Assembly (NCBI GenBank): GCA_041650805.1
Contig: JBAZKM010000012.1
Span: 1-61,824 of the forward strand
Origin: Candidatus Omnitrophota bacterium
Lineage (GTDB): Bacteria > Omnitrophota > Gorgyraeia > 2-01-FULL-45-10
DNA: 61,824 bases
Direction of reading: 5' to 3'
Made by a program: the position numbers and the translations under genes. Under the pieces are notes generated by a model. That model was not told the DNA's origin, did not search any database, and was given only the letters and a program-made list of their open reading frames with translations. Shown piece after piece: positions 1 through 54,655 of the stretch (position 1 is the first letter of the stretch; each line of letters starts with the position of its first letter).

Positions 1-670
1 TACCGTCAATGTCGCCTGAGGCCATAGATTCGGGGGTGGCGGAGCTGAGTAATGCCCAGGTGCCAGTGCCGTACCTGGCCCATATACCGTAATCGGTGCC
101 GAAGTCGATAACTATATCTACGAGGTTATCGCCGTCGAGGTCTCCCGTTACGATAGACCCCGGGTCCACATCGCTCACCCTGGTCCATAGGCCGTTATCA
201 CCGAGTATCCATATGCCGTAATCAGGCCCGAAGTCGATCACTATATCGTCCTTGCCGTTACCGTCAATGTCGCCCGAGGCCATCGCCTCCGGGGTAGCGG
301 AGCTAAGTAGCGCCCATGTGCCTGTACCGTACCTGGCCCATATGCCGTAATCAGCGCCGAAGTCGATAACTATATCTCCGAGGTTATCGCCGTCCAGGTC
401 TCCCGTTACGATAGACCCGGGGTCCACATCGCTCACCCTGGTCCATAGGCCGCTATCGCCTAGTATCCATATGCCGTAATCAGACCCGAAATCGATCACT
501 ATATCGTCCTTACCGTTACCGTCAATGTCGCCTGAGGCCATCGCCTCCGGGGAGGCGGAGCTAAGTAGCGCCCATGTGCCTGTACCGTACCTGGCCCATA
601 TGCCGTAATCGGTGCCGAAATCTATTACTATATCGCCGAGGTTATCGCCGTCGAGGTTTGCGATAAGGAT
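1..670 (-). repeat. Tandem 129-bp (43-aa) repeat tail, alternating A/B units with 258-bp period, at least 5 units
   Basis: Recurring atcccatatgccgtaatc/gccgaagtcgat blocks. Translation alternates DFGxDYGIWARYGTGTWALLSSA and DFGxDYGIWILGDxGLWTRVSDVDP units. Confidence 0.9.
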
Positions 671-2038
671 AGGATAAGGGGTATAATCATCAATAGCGAA
701 TTCATACGCTCCGATATCGTATCTGCTCCCTTGCGGCCGGGAGGTGCCTTCAAAATCCGTTGAGATATCCACCGTTCTGCCGCTATCTATAGCGGGCGAG
801 GTAGAAAGCAGACGAAAGTCATTGTCTGCGGGATTCAGGAATTGAGGGTCGGTGTTCCATATGTCATGAGGTGCGCGATCCGGGAAATCGGAATATATAT
901 CATAAAATAAATTGTTATCCTCCTCCACCGTACAAGTGGCGTCGGTGCCGATTGCGGTAACAGTGGAATAAAAGATATTATTATATATTCTGCCGCTGCT
1001 TTCTTCCCTTATGCCGACACCGATACCTTCCGGGTGGCCGTTCACAACGGTCTCTATGTTGAAAAACACATTATTGGCGACAAGCACATCTTTTACGTTT
1101 TTCATCACGCATATTCCCCATGAAACACCGTCCTTGAATATATTGTTTTTGATGACGATGTTGTTTACATAGCCCGTACCTTCGCCCTCGTCCATGATCA
1201 TTGCCCCTTGATTGAAAAAACCCTCAATTATATTTCCTTCTATTGTTACATTGCTTGCGTACTCTCCGTTTCTCGTAAAGGTTTGAAACCCGTCTACATG
1301 GGAGGCGCCCACTTCAGATAGGACGGCACCGTGAAAGTGATTCGATGAAATGATTATATTATTTCCAAAAAACCTGGAATAATCGCAATCAAGAAAATGC
1401 CAGCCCCCCGCAGGATCCATAGTTGACCACTCATAGAGCCGTTCCACTTCGTTGTGTTCCACCACCCAATTATCGCCCTGCACATGGATCCCGGCCTGGC
1501 AGCGGTATATCTTATTGCCGGCTATATAGCAATTATTAAACCACGGCTTTCCCCAATATCCGCCGATCGCGGCATTACCTTTAATCTCGTAAATATAATT
1601 ATCCACAACTTCCACATTGTGGCTGCGTATAAGGATCCCGGGGCCTTCGATATTCCCCGGGTTTGAGTTGGTGATATTAAAACCCTCGATGCGCAGATAA
1701 TTACAAAAGAGGGTGTAAAAACCCTGGATGGTCACGCTTCTTCTCGGCTCGGCTCTAAAAATTATCTTATTTTCCGCGTTTCCTGAGTGGCCTTGTGTAA
1801 ATGATATCCTTTCGTTATAATCGCCGGGATTTACTATAACGATATCTCCTGCTACCACGGTATTGGCTGCTTTCTGGATGGTTAACCAGGGAAGGGCTGC
1901 TGTCCCCGGATTGCTGTCGCTCGCAGAAGGGTCGGTATTATTAACATGGTACGTCACAGCTTCCGCCCATCCGGCAAATAACGCCAGGGCGCATAATACT
2001 GCAAAACCGTTAACAAATTTTACAAGTGTACGTTTCAT
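1..2038 (-). CDS. Secreted right-handed beta-helix (pectin-lyase-fold) protein with C-terminal 43-aa FG-GAP/VCBS-like repeats; partial, 3' end runs off the window
   Basis: Not in the ORF track (no stop in window). Manual translation from ATG 2038 (GAGG upstream): MKRTLVKFVNGFAVLCALALFAGWAEA|VTYHVNNTDPSASDSNPGTAALPWLTIQKAAN (signal peptide plus DUF1565-like start), Asn/Ile-rich beta-helix repeats, DPQF...SPAID...RPQG..YDIGAYE (choice-of-anchor-Q-like), then ILIANLDGDNLGDIVIDFGTDYGIW repeats to the edge. Confidence 0.9.
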   Translation of the reverse strand, partial: MKRTLVKFVNGFAVLCALALFAGWAEAVTYHVNNTDPSASDSNPGTAALPWLTIQKAANTVVAGDIVIVNPGDYNERISFTQGHSGNAENKIIFRAEPRRSVTIQGFYTLFCNYLRIEGFNITNSNPGNIEGPGILIRSHNVEVVDNYIYEIKGNAAIGGYWGKPWFNNCYIAGNKIYRCQAGIHVQGDNWVVEHNEVERLYEWSTMDPAGGWHFLDCDYSRFFGNNIIISSNHFHGAVLSEVGASHVDGFQTFTRNGEYASNVTIEGNIIEGFFNQGAMIMDEGEGTGYVNNIVIKNNIFKDGVSWGICVMKNVKDVLVANNVFFNIETVVNGHPEGIGVGIREESSGRIYNNIFYSTVTAIGTDATCTVEEDNNLFYDIYSDFPDRAPHDIWNTDPQFLNPADNDFRLLSTSPAIDSGRTVDISTDFEGTSRPQGSRYDIGAYEFAIDDYTPYPILIANLDGDNLGDIVIDFGTDYGIWARYGTGTWALLSSASPEAMASGDIDGNGKDDIVIDFGSDYGIWILGDSGLWTRVSDVDPGSIVTGDLDGDNLGDIVIDFGADYGIWARYGTGTWALLSSATPEAMASGDIDGNGKDDIVIDFGPDYGIWILGDNGLWTRVSDVDPGSIVTGDLDGDNLVDIVIDFGTDYGIWARYGTGTWALLSSATPESMASGDIDG

Positions 2039-2046
2039 AAATTGCC

Positions 2047-2175
2047 TCAACCCTGTTGTGCGGCAAGGTCATGCGGATGGAACTCCAGTACCCCGTATCC
2101 CGCCGAAATTGATGATAAGCTTATCTCCGCCATCTCATCGAGGCCGTTTTCGTCTATATCTTGAGCGGCTATAGA
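2047..2175 (-). pseudogene. Decayed relic of one extra 43-aa tail repeat immediately after the stop codon of the large GH9 gene
   Basis: In frame after TAA: SIAAQDIDENGLDEM...GYGV...HDL, matching the repeat (SP-E-SIATGDIDGNGKDDM); LIINFG appears in a shifted frame. Confidence 0.6.
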
Positions 2176-5100
2176 TTAGGGACTTAAGTCATGGAGCCGC
2201 TCCCAATCACCATTACCGTACTTAAGCCAGATACCGTTCTCTGTGCCGAAGTCGATGACCAGGTCGTCTTTGCCGTCTCCGTCAAGGTCCCCGGCGGCCA
2301 TCAAGTCGGGGCTTACGCCGCTCACCAGGTCCCACGTGCCGTCATCGTGCCTGGCCCATATGCCGTGATTCGGGCCGAAGTCGATGATGATCTCGGCCTT
2401 CGAGTCGCCGTCTATGTCGCCCGAGGCCAGGCATTCCGGGTCTACGACGCTTATAAGGTCCCACGTGCCGTCATCATGCCTGACCCATATGCCGTAATTC
2501 GGGCCGAAGTCGATGATGATCTCGGCCTTCGAGTCGCCGTCTATGTCGCCCGAGGCCAGGCATTCCGGGTCTACGACGCTTATAAGGTCCCACGTGCCGT
2601 CATCATGCCTGACCCATATGCCGTGATTCGGGCCGAAGTCGATGATGACCTCTGCTTTCGAGTCGCCGTCTATGTCGCCCGAGGCCAGGCATTCCGGGTC
2701 TACGACGCTTATAAGGTCCCACGTGCCGTCATCATGCCGTACCCATATACCATATTCCTGGCCGAAGTCGATGACTATCTCATCCTTGCCGTTACCGTTC
2801 ACGTCCCCGGCGACCATCGATTCGGAGCTTATATCGCTTATCATCTCCCATGTGCCGTCCCCGTGCTTAACCCATATGCCGTGGTCCTGGCCGAAGTCGA
2901 TCGCTATGTCATCAAAGTCATCGTCATCGAACCTTCCCGTGGTGATAGCTTCTGAATCGAGGCTGTTGAGCTCCTCCCAGGAGGCATTATTCATGTAGAG
3001 CCATATGCCGCAGGAGGGGCCGAAGTCGATGACCAGGTCGTCTATGCCGTTTGCGTCCGTGTCGGCCCCGGTCATAATCTCGGGGCTCATTATACTGAGT
3101 CCGGCCCAGGTGCCGTCATCGTACCTTATCCATGTGCCGTACTCTGAGCCAAAGTCTATCGCCATGGAATTTTTGCCAGCGGCATTTAAGCGGCCGATGA
3201 AGAGAGGGAGGGGGTATGCGGAAGATACGGTGTCGACATATTCATATGCGCCTATATCGAACCCGGCACCATGCGGCCTTGTGTTACTATCCAGATCGTC
3301 CGTGATCTCGCTCAGCGCAATGCCGGCGTCGATGAGAGGCGAGGTGGATTGCAGGTGCAGGTCCCACGGATCCCTGTCGCCGGAGGGTATGAGAACGAAT
3401 TTCGGGTCCGTATTTTTATCGTTTACGGCAGATGCGCCTCTCGTGCCTTTTATCCGGAAATAGGCATTATATCCTACATCCATGACCGGCTGAGAGCCGT
3501 CCACCGTCAGATAATAATGGTTGGTCAGGTTCCAATTACCGTAGATGATATTATTCTTTACTTTTATCGTGCCGGAACAGCCGTTGATCTCTATTCCGTG
3601 AGGAGTGCGGGTATTATCCCAAACTACGGGCGATGTGCCGGGTATGAGCGTGTTATGCTCGATGGTCGCGTTCTTAACGGTTATCAGATTGATCGGCTGG
3701 ATGACCTGGATCACGTTATTCGTGATGGTCACATTCTGTACGGTGCCGGGCGCATCTATATATATCCCCTGTGTGCACATCTCTGTATTGCCGGATGGCC
3801 CCGGGTCCAGTAAAATTATGCGGTTTTTGTCAAATGTGAGATTGGATCCCGTCTCACAAAGCTGGATGCCGTCTATGTGCGGCGCGCCCGCGATATTGCT
3901 GTTCCCCGGGTCGCTGAACCTTATGTCGTGGATGTAATTATCTTTGAATATATGGCCGATGCCTTCCACCTTGATCCCGTCCGCATCCGACCCGTCCACT
4001 GTACTGATGATGGGCCATAGAGGGTTCTGCACGACCCCGCTTATATCGTTCTTCTCTACCCTGTTATTCCGTCCCTTTACCAGGATCCCGCAGTATGTTC
4101 CCGCGCGCACGATACGGTTATTCGTGATCTTATTGTTGCTGAGATTATTGGACGCGCTTCCGGACCAGGTGTCTAACTGGATGCCGGGCCACACGGTATC
4201 ATGGATATAGTTGTTAAGGGCCTCGCAGGATTGCGCGTCAAATAGCGTTATGCCGGAACCGTTGAGCTCATCATCCGCCGCCGGGTTGGTTATTTCGAAC
4301 CCGTCTATAACGATATATGAGATCACGCCGGAGGATCTCTTGACGGTAAAACCTCCGTTCACCACTGCGCCGGGACCCGCTGCCCTGAAGACGGTGGGGG
4401 AGGCCGCGGATAGGCCGGATTTATTTACAGCCACCCTTTCCGTGTAGGTGCCGGCAGAGACCAGACAGGTACTGCCCGCAGGCATGGCAGTGGCGGCCTT
4501 CTGTATCGTCTTCCACGGAGTCCCTTCCGAGAGGCCGTCGTTGGCATCGTTGCCTGAATTGGCGTCGACATAGTGGACCTTTTCGCCGATCACTGTGATC
4601 GAAACGGTAGCGGTGTTGGAATCGTCAAGGCCGTCATTTGCCTTAAAGGTGAACGAATCGGTGCCGCTATAGTCAACTGCCGGAGTATAGGTGATATCAG
4701 GAGGTGTGCCGGTCAATGACCCGTGCCCCGGGTCCGAGACTATCGTATAGACAAGCGGGTCGTTATCGTCATCGGCGGCCCCTAAAGCGACCGCCTTTGC
4801 CGTATTTCTAGCAGTCGAGACCGATCGGTCGGATGCAGAAGGGGCGCGGTTGATATTATTTACGGTGACTTCGATATCCTTGCTAACCGAACCTGTGCCG
4901 TCAGATACTTCTACGCGGATGATGTGAGTGCCGCTATCGGTGTATGTCGTAGTATAAGGTAGCATTGTCACCCAATCGCTATAGGTATAGGTCAGGGCAT
5001 CACCGTCTATATCGGTGGCTTTCTCGAGCTCTGCGCACGTGATCGTATCGGCCTCATTCTTCACAAGGGTCGACGGGATACCGCTTAGATCGGGGAGACC

Positions 5101-8100
5101 GTTCATTGCAGATATCGTGACCGATACAGTTGCTATATTCGAATCGTCCGCGCCGTCATTTGCCTTATAGGTAAAGGTATCGCTCCCTTCGTAGCCGGTG
5201 TCCGGTATATATGTAAGGTCAGGCGCCGTGCCTGATAACGACCCATGCCGGGGATCGGCAACTATGATATAGGAGAGAGTATCTCCATCGGCATCGGAGG
5301 CGGAGAGGATGAGCGGCCTCGGTTCGTTCCCGGTCATGGTGAGCGATAGGGAATAGGCGACCGGGGGCGCGTTCTCCATGCCTACCGCGAGCGATATCAC
5401 CGCGACGTTTGAATCAGTATATCCGTCATGCACCTTGAAAGAAAATGAGTCGGTGCCGGAGTAGTCGGTATCCGGGGTATAGATGAGTTCGGGCGCTATC
5501 CCGCTCAGCGTGCCGTGCGAAGGCCCTGACGTGATGGTATAGGTGAGCGGGGCGACCTCTTCATCGCTGGCGTTGAGCGTAACGGGAACGGCCGTATCCT
5601 TTGTCGTCTTTATAGTATCGGGCTGTGCTACGGGCGGTTCGTTCGGCGCCGTGTCGCCTCTCAGGATATTAAAGACCGCGGCGGTGGCCGTCTGGCTGCC
5701 GATGCCGAATTCATTGTATCCCACCTGCGTGTTCTCATCGGCCCAGCGTCTGAAGACCGGATACGGCTCACCGACCTGCTCGATCGACGGATAGTTGTTC
5801 CTGTCGCTCTGCGCCTCGGCATACCAGGCGTTTGAGAATGTTGCGTGGGCATAGGCGCCGAAGACGTGGATGCCCGGTATAGGATCATCGACGTTATCAA
5901 ATCTCGATTGATTATGCAGGGGGTCTTTCGGGTATACGGTGCCGACCCCGGAGATGAATGATGTTGATAAGGGATTTGCGCCGAGCACGATATCCGCATT
6001 GATGCAGGCCGCGTCGTAAAATCGTTGATCGCCCGAGACGAACCAACCGAGAAGGAGTATATATGACTCGCAGGTATTCTGGCCGAGCGTTCCCCACCCT
6101 ACCCATTCCGGGACGTCATGGCGGGCGCTTACGCGATAGACGCTCGCCTCCGTCTTCTTCCTCAGATCCTCAGAATTCTTTATGAACGTATTCCTGATAC
6201 TTGTGCGGGTCGACTCGTTGACATCCGGCCACGTAGAGCGCAGGTATGCCCATTGCCCTTCCTTTCCGGAATGCTGGAAATCGTTCCATCCCCATCCGCT
6301 GACGAGCGTACTGGTGTTGTAAAGGGTTTCGTAGTATTCGCGGTACTCCGTTTTTCCGGTGGTGCGGTAGAGTTCAGCCGCGAGCCACGCACGGTTATCG
6401 ATATCCTCGGGATCGGGATACGGTCCGGAATGGTGACCGGCCGGTACCTGGTATCCCCCGACCGGCACCTGGGTCGGATGCTGTTTCAGGAACTCCCAGG
6501 CAAGTTCGGCGCGGCGCAGATACTCCAGCGATAGCGCCTTGTCGAACCGTTTCCAGACACGTGCGGCATTGGCGTAGATCGCCCCGGCTAGTGCCGTATC
6601 TCCGGTCGTTTTCGCCATGATGTAGCGGACAGGGTATCCGCCGATGTCCGACGCCTCCGGCGTGCCTGCCTCCCAGGTTTGCGCAACGACTTTATTATAG
6701 ACGCCGCCGTCAGGTGCCTGCATTTTTACTAAGAAGTCGATCTCCCATTTTGCCTCATCGAGGATATCGGGGATGCCATTGCCGCTCTCCGGGATATTCC
6801 AGTCTTCCTTGAACTTATTCGGCGCGATCTCGTAAGCGGTTAGGAGCCGCCATACAGGAGCGCAGGCGGACGTCACGTACTTTCCGTAGTCGCCGGCATC
6901 GAACCAGCCGCCTGTCATATCTACCATGCTGGCTGCGGGCACGGCGGCGCGGTCTTTGATGATGAGCGGGCAGACGGTCTCGCCGTTATAGAGCGGCGAG
7001 TCGAGCAGGGATTCATGGAATGCGGCGTCGATCGAGGCATCGTGGTCCATCGTCCGGACGAATCTCGGATCCGAATATGGTGTCTCGAGCGGCTGACCGC
7101 TCCGGTCATAGTAAAATACGCGCGAAGTGTGGTATGCGGTCTTATTAAGCGCGGCGGGCCCTATCGTGAAGGGATAGCTGTAACCGTATCCCTTCAGGTA
7201 TGCCCTGTAGGTGCCGCTCGCGGTGATGTCGCTGAAGTCGAACGTATATACATCTTCTCCGGAGAGGAAGTAGTTGGCCGCCTGCAGCACAAGCGGGATG
7301 CGCCTGACCGTATGGCCCGTCCCGGCATCGCGGATCTCGATCTCCGGCGTGACCTTCGGCAGGCGCATCTCGCCGAATGGGACCGCCGTGACGGCGAGGA
7401 TCGTCGCGTCATCGAGTGACTGCGTACCTATGCCTTTATCGGTTACGGAGACCATCGCGCCGTTCGTGCCGGCCGCCCACCACTGCCGGTTCTCAAGGAA
7501 CGCGACAGAGTGGAGTGTTTCGGTTGTACCGCTCGATTCTACCTTATATGTCAGGCCGTCGCGGTTTATGGATAAGAGCGTTCCGTTATCCCCTGCGGCG
7601 TAGGTATTTGCAGGCGGACGGTTAGGGTTGATAGCCAAACCGCGGAGCGTCACATCTACCATGCCGGAAGATGCGGCGATCTTAAGCCCCCATTGATCTA
7701 CGATGATCGTCCCGCGGGCCCCGACGATCGTCTGTACGCCGAAACCCTTCCGGCCTGCGACCGCATAGAGATCTTCGGTAGTGATGGTCTTTGAACTTTT
7801 CCATGTCGTGCCGTCATACCTGATGATGGTGCCGCTGTTCCCGACGGCGACCCCGTCATTGTCACTCCCGAACCAGACGGAGCGCAGGGTGACGGAGACG
7901 GGGCTTGTTACGTTTTCCCATGCGCCATCGCGGTATCGTATTATCGTGCCGTTGGCACCGACCGCCCATCCGGAGTTCGTCATACTGAAAGATATGCCGT
8001 ACAGGTCCTGGCCTGTCGGAGAGGCTACCTGGCTCCAGGCCGTACCGTCATAGTGGACTATCGTCCCGCCGTCACCGACAGCCCAGATATCATCCTCGCG

Positions 8101-9783: not shown

Positions 9784-9794
9784 CTTCATCCTTT

Positions 9795-14264: not shown

Positions 14265-14298
14265 TTGGCGCCTCCGTAATGTCATGTTCCATTTTCCG

Positions 14299-17200
14299 TT
14301 ACGTGCTCAGGTCGTGTATCTTCTCCCACGTGCCGTCCTGATGCTTCGCCCATATACCGTACTCCGATCCGAAGTCGATGACTATATCTCCGAGGTTATC
14401 GCCGTCCAGGTCTCCCGTCACGATAGACCCCGGGTCCACATCGCTCACACTGGTCCATAGGCCGTTATCACCGAGTATCCATATGCCGTAATCAGGCCCG
14501 AAATCGATCACTATATCGTCCTTGCCGTTACCGTCAATGTCGCCTAAGGCCATAGATTCGGGGGTGGCGGAGCTGAGTAATGCCCAGGTGCCAGTGCCGT
14601 ACCTGGCCCATATACCGTACTCGGTGCCGAAGTCGATAACTATATCTACGAGGTTATCGCCGTCGAGGTCTCCCGTCACGATAGACCCGGGGTCTACATC
14701 GCTCACCCTGGTCCATACCCCGCTGTCGCCGAGTATCCATATGCCGTAATCAGGCCCGAAATCGATCACTATATCGTCCTTGCCGTTACCGTCAATGTCG
14801 CCTGAGGCCATAGATTCGGGGGTGGCGGAGCTGAGTAATGCCCAGGTGCCAGTGCCGTACCTGGCCCATATACCGTACTCGGTGCCGAAATCTATCACTA
14901 TATCGCCGAGGTTATCGCCATCCAGGTCTCCCGTCACGATAGACCCGGGGTCTACATCGCTCACCCTGGTCCATAGGCCGCTATCGCCGAGTATCCATAT
15001 GCCGTAATCAGGCCCGAAGTCGATCACTATATCGTCCTTGCCGTTACCGTCAATGTCGCCTGAGGCCATAGATTCGGGGGTGGCGGAGCTGAGTAATGCC
15101 CAGGTGCCAGTGCCGTACCTGGCCCATATACCGTAATCGGTGCCGAAATCTATCACTATATCGCCGAGGTTGTCGCCGTCGAGGTTCGCGATTAGGATGG
15201 AGGGGAAGGCACTTTTAATATATGCGTATTCATAGGCGCCTATGTCCCAGATGGCTTCACCGTCTCCGTCCCCGTCTGCAGGTCTTACAGTCCCTTCGAT
15301 GTCAAGCGACTCTATCATCGGGGATAGGTCGATACCGTTGTCGATGGCAGGGGAACCGGCAAGCGGCCTGAATTCCCCATCGAGAAGAGGGTCCCCGTTG
15401 ATGCCGTTAACATCCGCCCCTCGGGATTGCCACTCCGCGAACGAAGGACAATAGTTACCGGCATCCTTAACCGGCATATCAAGGGTCGAACTATATATAT
15501 TGTTGTCTATACTGGAATAATCGAGCACGCCGTCCCCGAACCACGCCGCCGCATATCCGGCGGTGTTGATGAAGATATTGTTCTTTACCACTACATCCGG
15601 CGTATCGGGATGGAAGAGATGCTGTGATTTGCTCTTGACCACGTTATTGAATGCTATAAGCTTAAGGTCGTTCTCGCCTTCGGGTATGCTGTCACCGCTT
15701 CCGCGATATATGCCCATTACGGTGGAAGTCGAATTCGGAAGGTATATTATATTGTTGTGGATGTTATAGGTGCCGTGGCAAGAGGTGCAGTATAATCCCT
15801 GGGAGTTATACTCCTTAGGGGTGTCCTGGTGCAGGCGGTTATATCGCACCGTGGTGTTTGTCTCGTTCGTCATCTGTATACAGTCGCAGTGTTCCAGCGG
15901 GTCAAGGTTATTGATGTCGATAAGGTTATATTCGTATATATTGCCGGTGTTAGAGTTCGTCTGGATGCCGTCGGTCTGGTCAGGGATATGGTCGCGGGGC
16001 GTGGTTATCGTATTGCGGCTGACGGTGACATTCCCGCTGTTCGCCACGACTATGCCCATGCCTCCGCGTCCTTTCGTCTCGATGGTCATATTGATTATCA
16101 TTGAGTTGAAAGAATGGTCGATTCTTATGCCGTACCTGCAGTCACTATTCTCTATCCCTATGTCCCTTATGATGATGTAGTCGTTATTCGTTAACTCATC
16201 CCCGCTGCCCGGTTCCCGCCACGACTGTATTACCGAGTAGTCGCAGAGATCTATCGAACTATATGCGATCTGCGGATCTGACGGTGCATATAAGTATATG
16301 GTGTCGTTATGCCAATCCCAGTACCAGTCATACTCCTGTATAAGGGCGGCTATCGAGAACTTCCTGGCGCCTCTGGTGCCGTCTATGATCAATTTATAAG
16401 GATCTTTAATGCCCTGATTAGCCGTATACCAGATAGTCGCGTTATAGTTCGTCCAGCCGCCTGCAAGAACGGCCGCCTTACTTTGGAAGAGCGGTTTTTC
16501 GCCGCTGCCGTAAGCGCCGAAGGTGACATACGCGGTTTCGTCGCCCCCGCTGGTTATGTCTAACGATTCCCGCCACACCTCTCCCCGTTTGAACAATATG
16601 CTGTCCCCCGGCACGAAGGAAGCAGAATTAACTTTAGCGATCGTCTTCCATGGCGTCTCTTCCGAGAGGCCGTCGTTGGCATCGTCGCCGGAAGTCGCGT
16701 CGACATAATAAGTCCTGGCCGGTGCCGTGATTACGTCGATCGATACTGTAACAGGGGCGGAGTCGGCCAGGCCGTCATTTGTCTTGAAGGTGAACGAGTC
16801 GTCCCCCGTATAACCGGTATCAGGCGTATATGTTACATTCATCCCGGTCCCGGACAATGTCCCGTGGAGGGGACCGCTTATGATCGTGTAGGTTAAGTTA
16901 TCTCCGTCAGCATCGGTCGCGCCTAAAGTTATTGCCGTAGGCGTATTCTTAAAAACCGAAATGGTCTGGGGGTAGGCAACAGGAGAGCGGTTGACAGGTA
17001 TCACCTTTATCGCTACGGTGGCATTATTCGAATTCGCCGTCCCGTCGTTGACGCGGAAGGTGAACGAGTCGTCGCCCGCGTATCCGGCATCCGATGTATA
17101 TGACATATCGGGCGCGGTCCCGGCGAGGGCGCCGTGCGACGGCTGTGACAACACCGCGTACGTGACAGGATTACCGTCCGGGTCGAATCCGACGAGCCTG

Positions 17201-20200
17201 ATCGCTGTAGCGCATCCGGACTCTGCCGTAAGGGTCTGGTTGTTCGCTATGGGCGCTGTCTGTACGGCCGTTACTGTGATAGAGACGGTCGCTAAATTGG
17301 AGTCGGCTTCGAGGTCGTTCACCTTGAATGTGAACGAATCCGGACCGTTGTAATTGGTGAACGGCGTATAGGTCACGTTAGGCGCGGTCCCGGTGATCCA
17401 TCCGCGAAGCGGTTTTGTTACTATGATATAGTCGAACCTATCGCCGTCAGCGTCGGTAGCGTTGAGCGTGATCGATTTTGCCGTATTCTCCGCGGTAGTG
17501 ACCGACTGGGCGTTCGCCCCCGGCGCCGTATTTACGGCCGACGGGGCGACCTTTATCGTCACCGTTGCGTTATTGCTGGTAACGGACCCGTTGGATACTT
17601 TGAACTGGAAAGAGTCGCGTCCGGTATATCCGGCAGCGGGGATATATTTAAGAACGATAGGGGGAGTCGACGATATCCACTCGATAGTGCCGTTCGTCGC
17701 ATAGGGATATATTGAACAATAGAGGGCCGATTCGCCGTCGTTATCGGTTATGTTGAGCGGGATCGTGGCCGAACCGTTCCTGATCACCCGCACAAACTGG
17801 CTATAGACCACAGGTGCATCGTTGACCGAGGTCACATTGATAGTCACCATGGCTATATTAGATTCGAGCTTGCCGTCCGTCGCCTTAAACGTGAAGTTGT
17901 CGGCCCCCGTATAGTTGGAGGCCGGTGTATATGTGATCTTCGATGATGGCAGGCCGGTCACCGTGCCGTGTACGGGGGTCGAAGCCAGCATGAACGATAA
18001 CGTTTCGTTATCGGCATCCGCGGCGCCGAGCGTGATCGCCTTTGCCGTATCTTCGGTTACGGATACGGTCTGGTTCGTTGCCGCCGGGGCGTGGTTGGCC
18101 GTCACATTGATATATCCTGTCCTGGTATCGGTGGCCTGGCCGTAGCTATTGGATGCGGTCAGCGCGACTGTATAGTTGCCGACCGCCGTGTACGTGTGAG
18201 ACGGGTCGCGTATCGTCTCATTAATGCCGTCCCCGAATGTCCAGGACCACGCCGTCGGTGTATTGGCGGACCGGTCGGTGAATTGCACTGTGAGAGGCGC
18301 GGTGCCCCTGGTCACATTGGCGGCGAAGTCGGCGACCGGCGGTGCATCGCATCCTTCTACCGTGATAGTTTTTGTCAGGGAACCGGTATCCCCAAATTCA
18401 TCCATGACGGTCAACGTCGCGTTGTAACTGCCGGAAATGGTCGGGTAGTTGTGATACGAGACCATGCCCTCACCGGCCGTATCGTCCCCGTAGACCCAGT
18501 TATACTTAATCATCTTCCGTTCTGTCGTCGCCTCCGTGGCCGATGCGTCAAATGATACGGTGAGCGGCTGTTCCCCGGATCCCGGCACCGCCGAAAATGC
18601 CGCCTGCGGCAGCCGGTCCGCGAAAAGCTGCGCTATCTCTTCAAGCGAAAGCACTCTGCTCCACGCCTTGATATCGTCGATAGATCCTATGTACGGCGCC
18701 GTGTCCGTGTAGACATTCTTTCCGAGCGTCCATTTGACGGTACCTCCGATGCCGGTCGATATGGCAGCGCTGCCGCGTTCTATCCCGTCTACATAGAGCC
18801 GAACCGCCTTGCCGTCATAGGTAAAGGCGATGTGATGCCAGGTGTCATCGGCGACCGTCGTTAATGTCTGGGCAATGAATGTAGGAGTCCCTGAATATGC
18901 GGAGCGATATAAGAGGAGTAATTTGTTTTCGTTGAACGCTAAGCCGTTTCCGATGACGAGCGCGCACCCCACGGTACTGCTCGATCCGCCGGTTATGTTG
19001 TCGGTCGAAAATATGGTGCTGGGCGCGTCGGACGGAGGCGCCTTTATCCAGGCGGCAAACGTAAAGGAGCTGCTCCTCATATCGTTGATCATTGCGCCAA
19101 GGTCTATGGTCTGGCTGCCGTCGAATGTATAGGTCCCCCCAGCGTTCTCCCGCCGGTCGGTATCACGGACAAGCGTTCCGGAAGCGGTCCCATGGTTTGT
19201 ATATAAAGAATCGTCCTGTGTGCCGTCAGACGGATCATCATCGCATTTCATATTCAATATCTGATCAGGATTGGCGACCTCCTTATAGATCTTCATTACC
19301 TCATCGTCTGCGAGCGCGATATTGAACATCTTGAAGTTGTCCACGGTGATGTTGGTGCCCCACCCGTTCGTGAAGCCGACGACATACCATATGTCTGCGG
19401 GATCAAATTGATAATCGACCGTATGGGACCCCTTGAGCCGGCCGTCAACGAAGAGCCGGCCGACTACGCCGTCCGAAACATAAGCCACATGGTGCCATGT
19501 ATTATCACATATTACCGTATTGGTGTAAGCCTCATATCGTTGGTCTCCGCCGTCGTAGGCGACGAGACGGCTCGAGTTCGGGGTGGTCCGGTCGCTGTCA
19601 TAGAGCGCGAACTTCGTGGCGCCATCCGCACCGAGGACCCTTATGATGGCCCCGGACGAGTCGCCGCTTAATGCCGGCTTCCTCATCCAGCACGACACCG
19701 TAAATACCTGTCCTATATCATCGCGTATGGCGTCAAGCTTTATTCCCTGCGAACCGGCGAAGTTGTATGCCTTACCGTCCACTCCGGTGTAGTCGATGAC
19801 AGGATTATTCGACTGCATGCCGTGGTTGAGATACGGCGAACTGTCGGTGACGCCGTTCGTCATGGGTATACTATCCTTGTAATCATCCTCAAATCGCAGA
19901 TCAAGGATGAGCGATCCGGCCGTATCTATGTCGCAGGCCGCCGTGTCGGTATTGCCGCCGGAGTCCGTGACAGATAGGGTTACGTGATAAGTGCCCTTAT
20001 TCGTAAAGGTATGGACATTCCTTGGGCCGGCCCCCGTAGTCCCATCGCCGAAATCCCAGGCATATGATATTATGTTCCCGGACCCCGGGGTCGATCCCGA
20101 CCCGTCAAAGAGTATCGTAAGCGGCGCCTCACCGCCGGGAGCGCTCGTCTCTATCACGGCAAAGGGGAGGACGGCCGACTTTACCGTTATCGAAACGGTC

Positions 20201-23166
20201 GCCGTATTCGAATCGAACGTGCCGTCAAGGGCCTTGAATACAAAAGAGTCGGATCCGGCGTACCCGGCCTCAGGCGTATAAACGAGTGAACCGTCCGTTA
20301 TTGCCGACAGGGTGCCGTGGACCGGCCCCTGTACTATCGAATATATGAGGAAGTCATTATCGCCATCCGTTGCCGATAATGATACGGGCAGGGGGATCTC
20401 CGCCCGCGTATTGTGCTGCCCGTTAAGCGCTACAGGCGGGTGGTCATTTACGGGATCTACGGTGACCGTCACGGTGGCAGGAGAAGATGTGGAGATGCCG
20501 TCATTTGCGGTATAGGTGAACGTGTCTATACCGGAGAAATCCTTGCACGGTATATATCTCACCGTCTCTCCCGTTACTTCCAGGGCGCCGTGGGAAGGAT
20601 ATTTTGTTATGGCAAATGTGACCGGGTCATCCTCGGCGTCATCGGCATCGAGGGTCATGTCTATCGGGGTATCTTCATCGGTTGAGACGTTAATATCCTG
20701 CACTGCAGGCGCCACGTTCTTGGAACTGACGCGCTTTACGTTTATGCTGACGTTAGCGACATTTGAATCGGCCGTGCCGTTATTGACGACGAAGGTTATG
20801 GTGTCAGGTCCGAAATAACCGGTGTCGGGCAGGTAAGTGACCGCCGGCGCCGTTCCGGAGAGTGACCCATGCGATGGAGATGATATCACCCGGTATGTGA
20901 GCGGCGCTGCGGGGGTTAATATATCCTCGCCTTTTAAGGCGATGGCCAGGGACGTCTCCTGATTGGTCGAGACGACCTGATCGTATGCAACCGGGTTCGA
21001 ACATGCCACGGTGACCTTTGTGATGACGCGTGTAACCGTGTTCTTGAAAGAGAAGTAATCTGCGCCCGCATATCCCGCCTTAGGCGTATATGTGTATGCG
21101 CCGGTCGAAGCGGTGAAGGCCAGCGTGCCGTTCACCGGATACTCAAGGATGGCGTATCCCGCGCCGACGGGTGTCCCTGTAACCGGTGTGTCCTGTGCGC
21201 CCGCCAGCGTCAGATAATTGTATGTCCATATGGTAGCGGATTCTATGACCTCGACCTTATTGTCGGAGTTTGTATCATTATATGTGACCTCTGCCGCTGT
21301 CAGAGCCCTCCCGCCCGGGTCAGAGGTCTTCACCAGGTGGCCTTCCGCGGTATAGTCAGTGTTCACGGCGCCGGCGGTCCTTCTCCAGCCGGCAAGCTGT
21401 CCCGTCAGAGCGTACTTAAAGAGGTCCCTCGTCCATATCTTTTTCTTCGAAACGAAAGAGTAAACGGTGTTCGTATTATAATCTATCTGCAGAATGCGTC
21501 CCGCCTGATCATATGTCCGCACCTCGTGATCGAGAGTGAACGATGTAACGAAACCGGGGGCGGAATAATAGATGCCGTTATTGGCAAATACGCCTATCGA
21601 TACAAGATTAGAATTTGTGTAGAAAGACGCGATCTCCGGATTGGGGTTGTAGAAGAGAAATTTGGTCTTTGGATGGTAGTCGATCTCTATCTCGGCGATC
21701 GAATGCGCTTCATTGAGGTAATTTATCCTCACATGCGCAGGGTCTCCGCGTATCACCGCCCAGTGATATGTGAGCGGCTTATTATTGATATCGTAGCTCT
21801 CCTCGGCGCTTACCACCATGCGCTTGGTATACGCGCGGTCGCGCCACACGCGGCATATCGACGCCGGCGTATCGAAATATTTCTCCGTGGTCCTCTTGTC
21901 TATATCTTCAAATATGGCGTCGCCGGGGAGATATGCCTTATAGGTCTCGTCTATGACCTTAAGCTGGACCATAGGAGGTATGTCGGATAGGTTTATGCCG
22001 TTAGCCATCGTCACCATATCGAGCGAATTGGCGACATCATGGAATTCGTTTACATGGGCCTTGTAGCTGAGATACTCCCCGTCATCCTTGACGCGCGTCC
22101 GCCTGTATATCATCTGTACCGTGGGCATGAGGAGCGACTCAAGGCGTTCTGCGTGGTAAGGGTTGGCCCTTCGCTCGATCAACTTTGCCTTGACCTCCGG
22201 CTTGAACGCCGCGAAGGTATATATGAACTTCTGGAGCTCATCCGTTTCGGAACCGGACGCGCCTTTAGAGCCGCTTGCGTAGGCGGACATGGCATAAGAG
22301 AGGTCCGTTCCCTCGCCGCCGCCGCCCTGCCCCACCATCGGATGCCAGTAGTGGTTATTCGATATGTAGGCTCTATACGCGTCCTCCGGTCCGGTATTCC
22401 CGCTCCAGTAGTCAGACCTTGTGGGGTTCATATATTTATAATGGACTACGTTCAAATTGCCGTCAGGAGTGACATAGACATGCGACGCGTTCCCGACGAG
22501 CGTCTTGGTTTCCACTACAACTCCATCGCTGCCGGTCATGAGGTCCGCCTGCGGATAGTATCCCATGCTTAGGCCCGCATGGAAGCCGTCGCAGTTATCG
22601 TACCAGTCGCCTATATTGCCGGCGACCTCGCCAAGGGTCCATTTCGTCTTGAGGAAGGTTGCCGATGCGTCCGTGAGCGTGGCTATGGCAGGCTTCACTA
22701 TGGTCAGCTTCATCGTTGTAGACGTCGATAGGTTCGAGGTGTTCTTGACCGTAAATGTTATTTCGTGCAGGCCGTACGTAAATACCTGCGATGACCCGAC
22801 GGTCATCGTGAGGGCAGGGGTCACTCCCCACGAAAATTTGCCGGTAACGGTATCGAGCGAAGCCCCGGAGGGGAGGGAGCTTGAGACGTTGACCGTGACG
22901 CCGTCTTTCTTCCAGCCGGTGATCGAATAGGTGAGCGTCTGAGCAGGTGTATTCGGGTCGGTGGCGGCGACGGTGACCGAGAACGTATATGCGCTATTAT
23001 TGTAAGGTTTTGGTGTATGTGTCTTATCCGGTATAGCCGTTACATTAGGAGGCAGTGCAGCTTCGACATTAAGAGGGAAGACCATCAGGATAAAAGCGAA
23101 TACAGCCGTCGTTAGGGCGGCGCGCACGGTCATCCGGGGCTTTAGGATTAAAGGTAGCTTTTTCAT
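14299..23166 (-). CDS. Giant secreted adhesin-like protein: Ig, ~480-aa uncharacterised domain, about 9 Big_9/tandem-95 repeats, 3 PKD, 2 LamG-like domains, beta-helix, repeat tail
   Basis: YTP...Y.G.DSFTF repeats; PKD motifs (YAWDFGDG, WSWTFGDG); LamG-like WHHVAY...LFVDG and WHHIAFTYDG..VRLYVDG; YYVDATSGDDANDG..PWKTI beta-helix start. The ORF-track TTG 23265 lies inside the predicted -35 box, so ATG 23166 (MKKLP...NVEAA|LPP) is preferred. Confidence 0.88.
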   Translation of the reverse strand: MKKLPLILKPRMTVRAALTTAVFAFILMVFPLNVEAALPPNVTAIPDKTHTPKPYNNSAYTFSVTVAATDPNTPAQTLTYSITGWKKDGVTVNVSSSLPSGASLDTVTGKFSWGVTPALTMTVGSSQVFTYGLHEITFTVKNTSNLSTSTTMKLTIVKPAIATLTDASATFLKTKWTLGEVAGNIGDWYDNCDGFHAGLSMGYYPQADLMTGSDGVVVETKTLVGNASHVYVTPDGNLNVVHYKYMNPTRSDYWSGNTGPEDAYRAYISNNHYWHPMVGQGGGGEGTDLSYAMSAYASGSKGASGSETDELQKFIYTFAAFKPEVKAKLIERRANPYHAERLESLLMPTVQMIYRRTRVKDDGEYLSYKAHVNEFHDVANSLDMVTMANGINLSDIPPMVQLKVIDETYKAYLPGDAIFEDIDKRTTEKYFDTPASICRVWRDRAYTKRMVVSAEESYDINNKPLTYHWAVIRGDPAHVRINYLNEAHSIAEIEIDYHPKTKFLFYNPNPEIASFYTNSNLVSIGVFANNGIYYSAPGFVTSFTLDHEVRTYDQAGRILQIDYNTNTVYSFVSKKKIWTRDLFKYALTGQLAGWRRTAGAVNTDYTAEGHLVKTSDPGGRALTAAEVTYNDTNSDNKVEVIESATIWTYNYLTLAGAQDTPVTGTPVGAGYAILEYPVNGTLAFTASTGAYTYTPKAGYAGADYFSFKNTVTRVITKVTVACSNPVAYDQVVSTNQETSLAIALKGEDILTPAAPLTYRVISSPSHGSLSGTAPAVTYLPDTGYFGPDTITFVVNNGTADSNVANVSINVKRVSSKNVAPAVQDINVSTDEDTPIDMTLDADDAEDDPVTFAITKYPSHGALEVTGETVRYIPCKDFSGIDTFTYTANDGISTSSPATVTVTVDPVNDHPPVALNGQHNTRAEIPLPVSLSATDGDNDFLIYSIVQGPVHGTLSAITDGSLVYTPEAGYAGSDSFVFKALDGTFDSNTATVSITVKSAVLPFAVIETSAPGGEAPLTILFDGSGSTPGSGNIISYAWDFGDGTTGAGPRNVHTFTNKGTYHVTLSVTDSGGNTDTAACDIDTAGSLILDLRFEDDYKDSIPMTNGVTDSSPYLNHGMQSNNPVIDYTGVDGKAYNFAGSQGIKLDAIRDDIGQVFTVSCWMRKPALSGDSSGAIIRVLGADGATKFALYDSDRTTPNSSRLVAYDGGDQRYEAYTNTVICDNTWHHVAYVSDGVVGRLFVDGRLKGSHTVDYQFDPADIWYVVGFTNGWGTNITVDNFKMFNIALADDEVMKIYKEVANPDQILNMKCDDDPSDGTQDDSLYTNHGTASGTLVRDTDRRENAGGTYTFDGSQTIDLGAMINDMRSSSFTFAAWIKAPPSDAPSTIFSTDNITGGSSSTVGCALVIGNGLAFNENKLLLLYRSAYSGTPTFIAQTLTTVADDTWHHIAFTYDGKAVRLYVDGIERGSAAISTGIGGTVKWTLGKNVYTDTAPYIGSIDDIKAWSRVLSLEEIAQLFADRLPQAAFSAVPGSGEQPLTVSFDASATEATTERKMIKYNWVYGDDTAGEGMVSYHNYPTISGSYNATLTVMDEFGDTGSLTKTITVEGCDAPPVADFAANVTRGTAPLTVQFTDRSANTPTAWSWTFGDGINETIRDPSHTYTAVGNYTVALTASNSYGQATDTRTGYINVTANHAPAATNQTVSVTEDTAKAITLGAADADNETLSFMLASTPVHGTVTGLPSSKITYTPASNYTGADNFTFKATDGKLESNIAMVTINVTSVNDAPVVYSQFVRVIRNGSATIPLNITDNDGESALYCSIYPYATNGTIEWISSTPPIVLKYIPAAGYTGRDSFQFKVSNGSVTSNNATVTIKVAPSAVNTAPGANAQSVTTAENTAKSITLNATDADGDRFDYIIVTKPLRGWITGTAPNVTYTPFTNYNGPDSFTFKVNDLEADSNLATVSITVTAVQTAPIANNQTLTAESGCATAIRLVGFDPDGNPVTYAVLSQPSHGALAGTAPDMSYTSDAGYAGDDSFTFRVNDGTANSNNATVAIKVIPVNRSPVAYPQTISVFKNTPTAITLGATDADGDNLTYTIISGPLHGTLSGTGMNVTYTPDTGYTGDDSFTFKTNDGLADSAPVTVSIDVITAPARTYYVDATSGDDANDGLSEETPWKTIAKVNSASFVPGDSILFKRGEVWRESLDITSGGDETAYVTFGAYGSGEKPLFQSKAAVLAGGWTNYNATIWYTANQGIKDPYKLIIDGTRGARKFSIAALIQEYDWYWDWHNDTIYLYAPSDPQIAYSSIDLCDYSVIQSWREPGSGDELTNNDYIIIRDIGIENSDCRYGIRIDHSFNSMIINMTIETKGRGGMGIVVANSGNVTVSRNTITTPRDHIPDQTDGIQTNSNTGNIYEYNLIDINNLDPLEHCDCIQMTNETNTTVRYNRLHQDTPKEYNSQGLYCTSCHGTYNIHNNIIYLPNSTSTVMGIYRGSGDSIPEGENDLKLIAFNNVVKSKSQHLFHPDTPDVVVKNNIFINTAGYAAAWFGDGVLDYSSIDNNIYSSTLDMPVKDAGNYCPSFAEWQSRGADVNGINGDPLLDGEFRPLAGSPAIDNGIDLSPMIESLDIEGTVRPADGDGDGEAIWDIGAYEYAYIKSAFPSILIANLDGDNLGDIVIDFGTDYGIWARYGTGTWALLSSATPESMASGDIDGNGKDDIVIDFGPDYGIWILGDSGLWTRVSDVDPGSIVTGDLDGDNLGDIVIDFGTEYGIWARYGTGTWALLSSATPESMASGDIDGNGKDDIVIDFGPDYGIWILGDSGVWTRVSDVDPGSIVTGDLDGDNLVDIVIDFGTEYGIWARYGTGTWALLSSATPESMALGDIDGNGKDDIVIDFGPDYGIWILGDNGLWTSVSDVDPGSIVTGDLDGDNLGDIVIDFGSEYGIWAKHQDGTWEKIHDLST
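14302..15197 (-). repeat. Seven 43-aa DFG repeats, alternating A/B with 258-bp period
   Basis: Shadow ORFs 14522 and 14780 are offset by 258 nt; the units are near-identical to those at 1-670. Confidence 0.92.
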
Positions 23167-23236
23167 ATTAGGAACTAACTTTTTAAACCTGTTTAAAAAG
23201 ATCATAAAAAAACAGTGCCCCATATAGGCACCATAA

Positions 23237-23265
23237 AGTATATAACATAATATAATAAAAAGCAA
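23237..23265 (-). promoter_or_regulatory. Sigma70-type promoter for the giant-gene cluster
   Basis: Minus strand TTGCTT-17 nt-TATACT in an AT-rich intergenic region, about 65 nt upstream of ATG 23166. Confidence 0.6.
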
Positions 23266-24089: not shown

Positions 24090-25550
24090 ATGAGCGGGAT
24101 CTTCGGAGTGACCTCAAAGAAAGATTGTGTAGAGACCCTTTTTTACAGCACCGACTACCATTCCCACCTGGGGACGGAATACGGCGGCATGGCGGTGCTG
24201 GGCGACGAATTCGTACGGCAGATACACAATATAAGCCACACCCAGTTCAAGTCCAAATTCTTCGAGGATTCCAGGCAGATGAAGGGCACGAAAGGCATAG
24301 GCGTCATCAGTGCGTCCGACGAACAGCCTGTCTATCTCAATTCGCGCCTGGGCCCGTTCTGCATAGTGACCAACGGTTTTGTCGAGAATAAGGAGGAGCT
24401 GAGCGCGCGGCTTCTGTCGACAGGCACATCGTTCAGCGAGGTCACCCGGGGCGCCGTCAACGAGACCGAGCTTATAGCGAAATTGATAGTCGAAGGGCGC
24501 GATTTCATAGACGGAATAGAGAAGGTGTTCGATGCGGTCGAAGGGTCGTCTTCTCTCCTCCTCCTTACCAGGGACGGCATATATGCCGCAAGGGACAAGT
24601 TCGGTTATAACCCTCTCGTGATAGGAAAGCGCGATGACGCATGGGCGGTAACGTCCGAGACGAGCGCCTTTCCCAATAACGGTTTTAAGACGGTGAAATA
24701 TCTTTCCCCGGGGGAGATAGTGCTGATCAACGAGGATGGCGTCGTCCAGAAGAGGGCAGGTGACGGTGTAAGCCAGATATGCACATTCCTGTGGATATAT
24801 ACCGGTTTCCCCGCCTCCAGCTACGAAGACGTGAACGTAGAGATCGTCAGGGAGAGGAGCGGCCGCCTCCTGGCGAAGCATGATAAGGACATAAATGTCG
24901 ATGTCGTTTCGGGCGTTCCCGATTCGGGTGTGGGCCACGCCCTCGGTTACGCGATGGAGTCGAAGAAACCGTACCGCAGGCCCCTTGTCAAATATACCCC
25001 CGGTTACGGCAGGAGTTACACGCCCCCTTCACAGGAGAAACGCGACCTGATAGCCAGGATGAAGCTCATCCCCATAAAGGAGATAATAGAGGGACAGAGC
25101 GTAGTCGTATGCGAGGATTCTATCGTCAGGGGGACTCAGCTCAAGAATTTTGCCATCAAGAAACTGTGGGATGCGGGCGCGCGCGAAGTACACGTCCGTC
25201 CGGCATGCCCGCCGCTCATGTTCCCGTGCAGGTTCAACCTCTCGACCAGGAGCATAAAAGAGCTCGCCGCCCGCCGGGCCATCCGCAGCATCGAGGGGCA
25301 TGACCTCGAAGATGTCTCGGAATACGTAAATAACGCTTCCGGGAAATATAAAGATATGGTCGAGTGGATAAGAAAAGATATAGGCGTTACGACATTGAGG
25401 TACCAGACGGTCGAGGACATGGTGAAGGCGGTCGGTTTGCCGAAAGAGCGGTTATGCCTTTACTGCTGGACCGGAAAGTGCCCCGGACCTAAAAGTTGCT
25501 GTGACACACAAAAAGACGGGTGTTCTCTTGCCTGCGGGAAATCCCGGTAA
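24090..25550 (+). CDS. purF: Amidophosphoribosyltransferase, atypical subfamily (Ser in place of catalytic Cys1)
   Basis: Ntn domain plus PRTase domain: VPDSG, EDSIVRGTQL, CPPLMFPC, CLYCW. N-terminus is MSGIFG and YHSHLG replaces the canonical QHRG. Confidence 0.88.
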   Translation: MSGIFGVTSKKDCVETLFYSTDYHSHLGTEYGGMAVLGDEFVRQIHNISHTQFKSKFFEDSRQMKGTKGIGVISASDEQPVYLNSRLGPFCIVTNGFVENKEELSARLLSTGTSFSEVTRGAVNETELIAKLIVEGRDFIDGIEKVFDAVEGSSSLLLLTRDGIYAARDKFGYNPLVIGKRDDAWAVTSETSAFPNNGFKTVKYLSPGEIVLINEDGVVQKRAGDGVSQICTFLWIYTGFPASSYEDVNVEIVRERSGRLLAKHDKDINVDVVSGVPDSGVGHALGYAMESKKPYRRPLVKYTPGYGRSYTPPSQEKRDLIARMKLIPIKEIIEGQSVVVCEDSIVRGTQLKNFAIKKLWDAGAREVHVRPACPPLMFPCRFNLSTRSIKELAARRAIRSIEGHDLEDVSEYVNNASGKYKDMVEWIRKDIGVTTLRYQTVEDMVKAVGLPKERLCLYCWTGKCPGPKSCCDTQKDGCSLACGKSR

Positions 25551-54499: not shown

Positions 54500-54510
54500 C
54501 GGAACGTAAG

Positions 54511-54530
54511 ATCAAAACTTTCGGATGGCC
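54511..54530 (+). pseudogene. Possible degenerate relic of the miaB 5' end (IKTFGW)
   Basis: atcaaaactttcggatgg = IKTFGW versus miaB IRTFGC and relic IKTFGC; short, so chance is not excluded. Confidence 0.4.
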
Positions 54531-54655
54531 GTTGGTTACAGTATTACATACTGATCGTACATTTTCTGGACGACGTATATAATAGTGTTTAGTGCTTCAG
54601 ATATAACGAGTTACGAGAATTGAAGGTAGGGGAACCGTACGTAAGTGAAAAATGT

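Follow-up and report, generated by a model that had tools for sequence, protein, structure and literature searches.

The window analysed here is the whole of contig JBAZKM010000012.1 (61,824 bp) from a Candidatus Omnitrophota bacterium, in which four consecutive genes encode large proteins with Sec-type signal peptides, different cargo and a common repetitive tail that forms a calcium-loop beta-propeller. The MiaB homologues with a named source, 58-68% identical to the MiaB encoded on this contig, all come from Candidatus Omnitrophota. The genes are lettered A, B, C and D in transcription order and all lie on the minus strand (Table 1). Intergenic gaps of 13 nt (A-B), 11 nt (B-C) and 137 nt (C-D) are compatible with a single operon, from which an rluA-like gene at 23430 would diverge. 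Read by eye, the N-terminus of each of the four proteins shows a basic n-region, then a hydrophobic h-region and a cleavage site of the AxA type, with cleavage (at the slash) at VEA/A, ASA/D, ASA/L and AEA/V. The likely start of gene A coincides with the end coordinate of the stretch delimited in the initial annotation of this DNA, which was made from the letters alone; a GTG is an alternative start, as used in database entry P0365 (2942 aa).

The tails are arrays of 43-aa units whose period is exact, with zero indels in all four proteins. Altogether 26 in-register units are present, a repeat far beyond chance, and their consensus reads gd.Dgd..ddivIDFG..YGIW.r...GtW.l.S.v.Pe. The complete tails span 255-346 aa. 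At the DNA level, unit copies are up to 94-95% identical, and three successive units of the C tail are near-identical (up to 95% nt), a pattern that points to recent blade amplification there. A Dx[DN]x[DN]G calcium loop of the FG-GAP/VCBS type is predicted between the first two strands of the blade. In its strict form, Dx[DN]x[DN]GxxD/E, the calcium motif is found in 3 of 7 blades in A, 3 of 6 in B and 3 of 8 in C, and a relaxed form is found in 6, 4 and 6 blades, respectively. Promoter-like matches around D in a promoter and terminator scan were rejected as artefacts, as they recur every 129 nt within the repeats; Rfam and tRNA scans of the window gave no matches. The contig ends inside the D tail, which is ~92% identical at the nucleotide level to the A tail 12 kb away (1-676 versus 14302-15213). 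This repeat is probably what broke the assembly, and more genes with such tails may therefore be present past the end of the window.

Profile searches and structure prediction place this tail in a familiar superfamily. The Pfam FG-GAP model (PF01839) matches all four whole proteins above its 22.1-bit gathering cut-off (A, 39.2; B, 26.5; C, 29.3; D, 33.8 bits), with only profile positions ~2-20, the calcium loop, aligning to the tails; the FG-GAP_3/VCBS model stays below its own cut-off in A-D. AlphaFold2, run for the A tail with a 24-sequence alignment, returned a closed 7-bladed, 28-strand beta-propeller (predicted local distance difference test (pLDDT) score 94.6, predicted template modelling (pTM) score 0.90), and the B tail was predicted as a closed 6-bladed, 24-strand propeller (pLDDT 92.3, pTM 0.88). 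In the models, the ring is closed by a 3+1 velcro arrangement, in which the N-terminal strand (ILIANLDGD in A, MITAVLDPLDD in B) serves as the fourth strand of the last blade. Foldseek searches of the PDB gave as top matches ITFG2, the fungal N-acetylglucosamine (GlcNAc) lectins PVL, PAL and AAL2, and the bacterial lectin CV39L, together with UmbA4 of Streptomyces in complex with teichuronic acid, aldos-2-ulose dehydratase (AUDH), CRTAC1, a polysaccharide lyase family 11 (PL11) lyase, TcB, integrin alpha and Vibrio cholerae Bap1. The best matches reach query-normalised TM-scores of 0.6-0.7 at 14-19% identity, with a Foldseek probability of 1.00 for ITFG2, PVL, integrin alpha, AUDH and TcB. At the sequence level, a profile of the tail found nothing better than E = 0.005 among PDB entries. 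These analyses show that the tail is a compact FG-GAP/VCBS-type calcium-loop beta-propeller with four strands per blade and six (B), seven (A) or eight (C) blades; what had looked like a novel tag is a compact member of a well-known group of propellers.

Comparison with characterized members supports this placement and shows where the tails depart from it. VCBS propellers typically have signal sequences, bind carbohydrates and occur at protein termini, and amplification of internal blades leaves close relatives with different blade numbers (PMC8023676, PMC9218822; Pereira & Lupas 2021, 2022). The tails share with this supercluster (PF13517, PF01839) the signal-peptide proteins on which they occur, the DxDxDG calcium loop, a mostly 7-bladed build, repetitive copies at the termini, variation in blade number among close relatives and Ig-like or lectin partners. 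The 6-, 7- and 8-bladed tails of one locus, together with the near-identical blades of C, are textbook blade amplification. However, the tail blades are unusually compact at strictly 43 aa, the Pfam models cover their calcium loop alone, and the subfamily of ~900-6000 clusters to which they belong has no dedicated family model. The best-scoring structural neighbours with a defined ligand are the PVL-type lectins (PVL 2BWM, PAL 5MB4, AAL2 4TQM and CV39L 6GXS; query-normalised TM-score ~0.7), which are likewise 7-bladed, integrin-like, Ca-binding propellers. Their resemblance to the tails is at the level of fold only (17-19% identity), their blades are ~57 aa rather than 43 aa long, and they stand alone rather than forming modules on enzymes. 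Repeats-in-toxin (RTX) sequences of type 1 secretion, which are nonapeptide GGxGxD beta-rolls on proteins lacking a signal peptide, are a different case, because the tails combine a 43-aa period and a predicted propeller fold with N-terminal Sec-type signals in all four proteins.

The cargo ahead of the propeller, assigned by Pfam and NCBIfam scans of A-D, differs from protein to protein. D carries a beta-helix (DUF1565/Beta_helix/Pel9A-like). C combines a glycoside hydrolase family 9 (GH9) domain and a CelD_N Ig domain with a beta-helix, five Big_9/'tandem-95' domains, He_PIG/PKD and a Ycf48/BNR-like propeller, and B joins GH9 to two HYDIN/ASH Ig domains and a choice-of-anchor D domain. Both GH9 domains are predicted enzymes, with a PF00759 match, an HDAGD or FDAGD motif and an NEF motif; the nearest PDB entries to that of C are an endoglucanase (3X17) and the xyloglucanase BoGH9A (6DHT). 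The N-terminal domains of B and C are weakly similar (29% identity over ~190 aa) and have no Pfam match; they may be a beta-sandwich resembling a carbohydrate-binding module (CBM) ahead of the GH9 modules. A contains eight Big_9, three PKD and two Laminin_G_3 domains, and its beta-helix was recognized only through 38% and 30% identity to the helices of C and D and through a choice-of-anchor Q match. The ~500-aa domain near the N-terminus of A matches no Pfam model with confidence and no PDB entry by sequence, and its sole trace is a sub-threshold match to Sde0182_C, the C-terminal domain of a cellulose-binding protein. No Pfam or NCBIfam model for a type IX secretion system (T9SS) C-terminal domain (CTD), SLH, dockerin, LPXTG/PEP-CTERM or autotransporter matched A-D.

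Much of the initial annotation is borne out at this level. It had read four consecutive co-oriented genes with Sec-type signal peptides, and the open reading frames (ORFs) and the signals agree. Its counts of at least 5, 8, 6 and 7 tail copies in plus-strand order are those of D (at least 5), C, B and A, and the cargo it listed (beta-helix; GH9 plus beta-helix; GH9; an unmatched domain plus LamG, PKD and beta-helix) is recovered by the domain scans, with the helix of A coming from identity. Neither its statement that no T9SS CTD, sortase motif, SLH, dockerin or autotransporter barrel is visible nor its assignment of the loop to the FG-GAP/VCBS type, with predicted Ca binding, needs changing after the model scans, the Dx[DN]x[DN]G motifs and the Pfam FG-GAP match.

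Table 1. Coordinates of the tail-bearing genes, their domains and other features in the window and in two further Omnitrophota loci.
Feature	Position	Strand	Protein coordinates and remarks
Gene A	14299-23265	-	Longest ORF 2988 aa; likely start 23166 (MKKLPL...). Order: signal peptide, He_PIG-like Ig, ~500-aa unmatched domain, 8 Big_9/cadherin-like, 3 PKD, 2 Laminin_G_3, beta-helix, 7-unit tail
A N-terminal cargo domain	21166-22698	-	aa 190-700, ~500 aa
A right-handed beta-helix	15214-16719	-	Ends in choice-of-anchor Q (aa 2632-2680, ...DIGAYEY) right before the tail
A tail	14302-15213	-	aa 2685-2988; 7 x 43-aa units, two alternating blade types
Gene B	9795-14285	-	1496 aa. Order: signal peptide, CBM-like N-domain in common with C, 2 HYDIN/ASH-type Ig (choice-of-anchor D), CelD_N-like Ig, GH9 catalytic domain, 6-unit tail
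B N-domain shared with C	~13731-14168	-	aa ~40-185
B GH9 catalytic domain	10620-11951	-	PF00759, 72.6 bits; HDAGD and NE motifs
B tail	9798-10562	-	aa 1242-1496; 6 x 43-aa units
Gene C	2176-9852	-	Longest ORF 2558 aa; likely start 9783 (MNNDSS..., 2535 aa, the same as P0276). Order: signal peptide, He_PIG/PKD, Big_9, CBM-like domain, Ycf48/BNR-like propeller, CelD_N + GH9, 4 Big_9, beta-helix, 8-unit tail
C N-domain shared with B	~8668-9105	-	aa ~250-395
C GH9 catalytic domain	5704-7125	-	PF00759, 181.1 bits
C beta-helix	3238-4557	-	DUF1565/Beta_helix; ends in choice-of-anchor Q (aa 2164-2205)
C tail	2179-3216	-	aa 2213-2558; 8 x 43-aa units
Gene D	2-2038	-	Partial, 679 aa present, cut by the contig end. 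Order: signal peptide, Pel9A-like/DUF1565 beta-helix with choice-of-anchor Q (aa 405-447), at least 5 tail units
D tail	2-676	-	aa 455-679, incomplete; at least 5 units
Two-domain hexokinase	25501-26877	+	PF00349 + PF03727
PMT_2/GT-C paralogues (four)	30497-32191, 42527-44239, 44967-46397, 49390-50973	+	
GT2 glycosyltransferases (two)	44236-44970, 47770-48513	+	
Sulfatase	46390-47757	+	
Radical-SAM/SPASM enzyme	48506-49423	+	
Low-G+C patch	54000-56900		
Nucleotidyltransferase	55087-55770		NTP_transf_8; in the low-G+C patch
Unannotated ORFs	54789-55106, 55854-56873		In the low-G+C patch
Propeller genes beside polysaccharide-synthesis genes, locus L001	11784-18915		Wzx flippase, methyltransferase, GT2, acetyltransferase, GT4 and GT2, beside propeller genes
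Propeller gene beside polysaccharide-synthesis genes, locus L009	2308-9498		Initiating sugar transferase, Wzx, two methyltransferases, radical SAM and two GT2, then the propeller protein

The propellers are far more alike than the cargo they follow. The tails of A and D are 95.5% identical at the amino acid level and ~92% at the nucleotide level, versus 30% identity for their beta-helices, and those of B and C are 66% identical, versus 33% for their GH9 domains. Because the similarity of the tails so exceeds that of the cargo, the sequences indicate gene conversion or exchange of tails within the locus, where a domain common to divergent cargo has thus evolved in concert.

The propeller of A, C and D comes straight after the NCBIfam domain 'choice-of-anchor Q', a name that NCBI uses for domains preceding different C-terminal anchors in different lineages. 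The nearest homologues of the D beta-helix (43-49% identity) end in a T9SS CTD (PF18962), in SLH (P0488) or in dockerin (P0440), and others end in PKD, in an Fn3-like extension or in nothing; the 43-aa unit occurs in none of these nearest homologues. T9SS CTD, SLH and dockerin modules therefore take the slot of the tail in homologues of the D cargo. They differ from it in that they are not homologous to the tail, which is much larger and not restricted to the C-terminus, and in that no cognate machinery or partner for the tail was found in the contig.

Beyond this locus the propeller is widespread. A family profile built from the 7-blade module and searched against cluster representatives at 50% identity matched 25,168 representatives at E ≤ 1e-3, 6,039 at E ≤ 1e-10 and 910 at E ≤ 1e-30. 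Among the best 135, on which the counts of position and blades rest, the propeller is C-terminal in 99 (73%), N-terminal directly after the signal peptide in 12 (9%) and internal in 24 (18%); most have exactly seven units, some have 6, 8 or 12-14, and a signal-peptide-like N-terminus is present in most. The module is also N-terminal in three of the loci examined (L007, L008 and L009), the last being a 2,204-aa Omnitrophota protein in which 1763 aa come after it. Its partners include subtilases, astacin, M10 and M4 proteases, CAP domains, arrays of leucine-rich repeats (LRR), of CarboxypepD_reg/SdrD_B and of Ig-like domains, glycosidases, beta-helix enzymes, a GH2/GH72-like barrel, Golvesin_C with a beta-helix, purple acid phosphatase, glucose/sorbosone dehydrogenase and further kinds of propeller. 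Among GTDB representatives, the best matches to the tails (44-46% identical) come from Omnitrophota, Thiomargarita nelsonii, Desulfosarcina, Thiotrichaceae, Nitrospirota and Scalinduaceae. As an extracellular domain, the tail propeller is mobile and widely distributed among environmental diderm bacteria, usually terminal and borne on very diverse cargo. Por_Secre_tail matched in 2 of 68 propeller representatives, neither of which was located among 10 candidates that were re-scanned. In several homologues (P0011, P0261, P0270, P0272, P0275, P0280, P0284, P0317 and P0380), the propeller is followed by an acidic, proline-containing extension of 35-55 aa (for example, ...ELENTxxLPK or ...LPEPELGIQLP) with no transmembrane helix or recognizable sorting signal; A-D have no such extension.

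Gene neighbourhoods add a hint as to what the propeller binds. Adjacent pairs of tail-bearing genes recur in loci L001, L004 and L007. In both of the other Omnitrophota loci with flanks (L001 and L009), propeller genes adjoin polysaccharide-synthesis clusters (Table 1), and in L009 a gene for a 1016-aa subtilase comes next after that for the propeller protein. This adjacency is a hint in favour of a glycan of the producer as the ligand. In the window itself, genes for glycosylation (four PMT_2/GT-C paralogues, two GT2 glycosyltransferases, a sulfatase and a radical-SAM/SPASM enzyme) lie 7-28 kb from the A-D cluster, interleaved with sensor kinases and FeoB, and they might make the glycan to which the propeller binds.

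We infer that the propeller acts as a multivalent, lectin-like binder through which all four proteins share a single polysaccharide address, and that it is not a secretion or sorting signal. A role in localization through non-covalent polysaccharide binding is mildly favoured because of the concerted tails, the equivalence of the choice-of-anchor slot, the polysaccharide genes next to the propeller in two loci and the precedent of V. cholerae Bap1 and RbmC. In these two proteins, a common velcro-closed propeller binds the cell's own exopolysaccharide, and the other domains differ and face the environment (PMC10102183). The Omnitrophota locus shares with them (PDB 6MLT) the scheme of secreted proteins with one common, putatively Ca-binding, velcro-closed propeller and differing further domains. 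However, the Vibrio propeller has eight blades with a beta-prism inserted among them, its Foldseek match to the tail is weak (E = 6e-5, query-normalised TM-score 0.42) and no sequence match was found at E ≤ 1; the tail is an analogue of the Bap1/RbmC propeller, not a member of its group. By this analogy, we tentatively take the address to be the producer's own surface or capsular polysaccharide, on which the proteins would be held non-covalently; our confidence in this assignment is somewhat short of even. Retention would probably depend on Ca, judging from the loop motifs. In such a scheme, the Sec signal at the N-terminus and an outer-membrane route would export A-D, the tail would hold them on the polysaccharide as 'double-sided tape', as the Bap1/RbmC propeller does on Vibrio polysaccharide, and the GH9, beta-helix and adhesin cargo would face outward to the substrate or to host or prey cells.

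Several observations weigh against retention on the producer's own polysaccharide. The tails are only 14-19% identical to lectins whose specificity is known, too little for that specificity to be transferred, and the nearest ligand-defined structures (PVL, CV39L and UmbA4) bind foreign glycans, which favours a target-binding role. Adjacency to polysaccharide clusters holds at two of the four loci tested, with no such neighbours at the two non-Omnitrophota loci checked (L005 and L010), and in the window housekeeping genes lie between the glycosylation genes and the A-D cluster. Recombination driven by the repeats, and not selection, could account for the high similarity of the tails. The search for a tail partner covered the 61.8-kb contig, and a partner protein could be encoded elsewhere in the genome.

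The propeller could instead act as a CBM-like lectin that concentrates the cargo on its substrate, or on a host or prey glycan, and not on the producer, an explanation that we consider possible if somewhat less probable. Besides CV39L, the relatives that recognize foreign glycans include PVL, PAL and AAL2, which bind GlcNAc, and UmbA4, which binds teichuronic acid; a catalytic domain with a binding module is the standard layout of carbohydrate-active enzymes, near-identical blades imply multivalent binding of a repetitive polymer, and Omnitrophota are proposed predators or parasites that degrade the surface polysaccharides of their targets (PMC10066038; bioRxiv 10.1101/2023.11.21.568195). However, this propeller also occurs on proteases, LRR and CAP proteins and phosphatases in many phyla, which is unexpected for a substrate-specific CBM, the cargo homologues have anchors and not CBMs in the slot of the tail, and polysaccharide-synthesis clusters adjoin propeller genes in two other Omnitrophota loci. 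An address on the producer's own polysaccharide is favoured ahead of a target glycan, with the latter close behind. A structural or stabilizing module with no specific ligand seems unlikely. Under that explanation, a Ca-dependent fold in a Ca-rich exterior, following an RTX-like logic, would serve as cap or spacer, and the similarity of the tails would reflect neutral recombination. Calcium-loop motifs in most blades agree with it, as do the drift between six, seven and eight blades in one locus and the recent amplification of units, which is common in repetitive VCBS propellers (PMC9218822); against it, thousands of secreted proteins have kept this family of propellers, its 7-blade architecture is strongly conserved, and its characterized relatives are binding domains.

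The initial annotation had proposed that the tail is an anchoring, export or assembly tag that builds a cell-surface complex. The part of this proposal that stands is the shared module on four secreted proteins with different cargo; the part that falls is a new kind of tag. What it had treated as a tag is neither short nor a signal for export: it is a 255-346-aa folded propeller of a known superfamily and, as it had framed the opposing case, the tail does fold as an ordinary lectin-type propeller by AlphaFold2 and Foldseek. An export or sorting signal, or a dockerin-like tag for a scaffold or secretion machine that assembles a cellulosome-like complex, would account for one module common to four adjacent secreted proteins, for its C-terminal position in 73% of the best family members and for its place in the T9SS CTD or dockerin slot of the cargo homologues. 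We nevertheless regard it as distinctly improbable. The expectation that the tail would be strictly C-terminal on signal-peptide proteins is contradicted by the profile scan: with the module N-terminal in 12 and internal in 24 of 135 (27% together, including Omnitrophota L009), it is not an obligate C-terminal sorting signal. A domain of ~300 aa far exceeds known sorting signals, A-D already have Sec signals, and no sorting-signal or dockerin model matched. The cellulosome-like complex found no support either: A-D lack a dockerin, the ORFs of the contig include neither a cohesin-like gene nor one for such machinery, and no evidence of tail-tail contacts was found. Least probable is a catalytic propeller, such as a PL11-type lyase or an AUDH-like enzyme, that would add a fifth enzymatic activity. 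PL11 rhamnogalacturonan lyase (4CAG) and AUDH (4A7K) are among the structural matches, but their TM-scores are lower (0.52-0.58) and cover just their propeller scaffold, minimal 43-aa near-identical blades leave no differentiated active site, and the best sequence E-value to 4A7K is 0.005.

Retention on the producer's own polysaccharide would bear on how these organisms are thought to live. Omnitrophota cells are ultra-small, a predatory or parasitic way of life has been proposed for them, and their large proteins have been proposed to serve in adhesion and in degradation of target surface polysaccharides (PMC10066038; bioRxiv 10.1101/2023.11.21.568195). A-D resemble the large adhesin-like proteins described from the phylum (Seymour et al. 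2023; West-Roberts et al. 2023) in being secreted, multi-domain and equipped with Laminin_G_3, and differ from them in size (1.5-3 thousand aa rather than ORFs of >20 kb). FG-GAP/VCBS tails are not mentioned in those two reports (PMC10066038; bioRxiv 10.1101/2023.11.21.568195) or in a 2026 preprint on long Omnitrophota proteins. If the tail is a shared polysaccharide anchor, it would explain how large attack or adhesion enzymes are kept on very small Omnitrophota cells with no recognized anchor, and the ~900-6000 unannotated clusters (at 50% identity) would be a portable extracellular binding module. A broader version of this idea, which we offer as speculation and consider doubtful as it stands, is that the 43-aa-blade propeller is a general module for non-covalent surface display on a lineage-specific capsular or lipopolysaccharide (LPS)-type polysaccharide in Omnitrophota and perhaps in other diderms of sediment and groundwater. 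It would be the functional equivalent of SLH domains on secondary cell wall polymer (SCWP) or of the T9SS CTD on A-LPS, would arm ultra-small predatory or parasitic cells with exchangeable hydrolases and adhesins, and its tails would co-evolve with the neighbouring polysaccharide-synthesis genes.

Two further features of the window lie apart from the A-D cluster. One is a eukaryote-type two-domain hexokinase (PF00349 and PF03727, E = 1e-62 to 1e-76), a family that is uncommon in bacteria. The other is a patch with a G+C content of 0.39 versus ~0.53 elsewhere, which contains an NTP_transf_8 nucleotidyltransferase gene and unannotated ORFs (Table 1) and may be a small acquired island.

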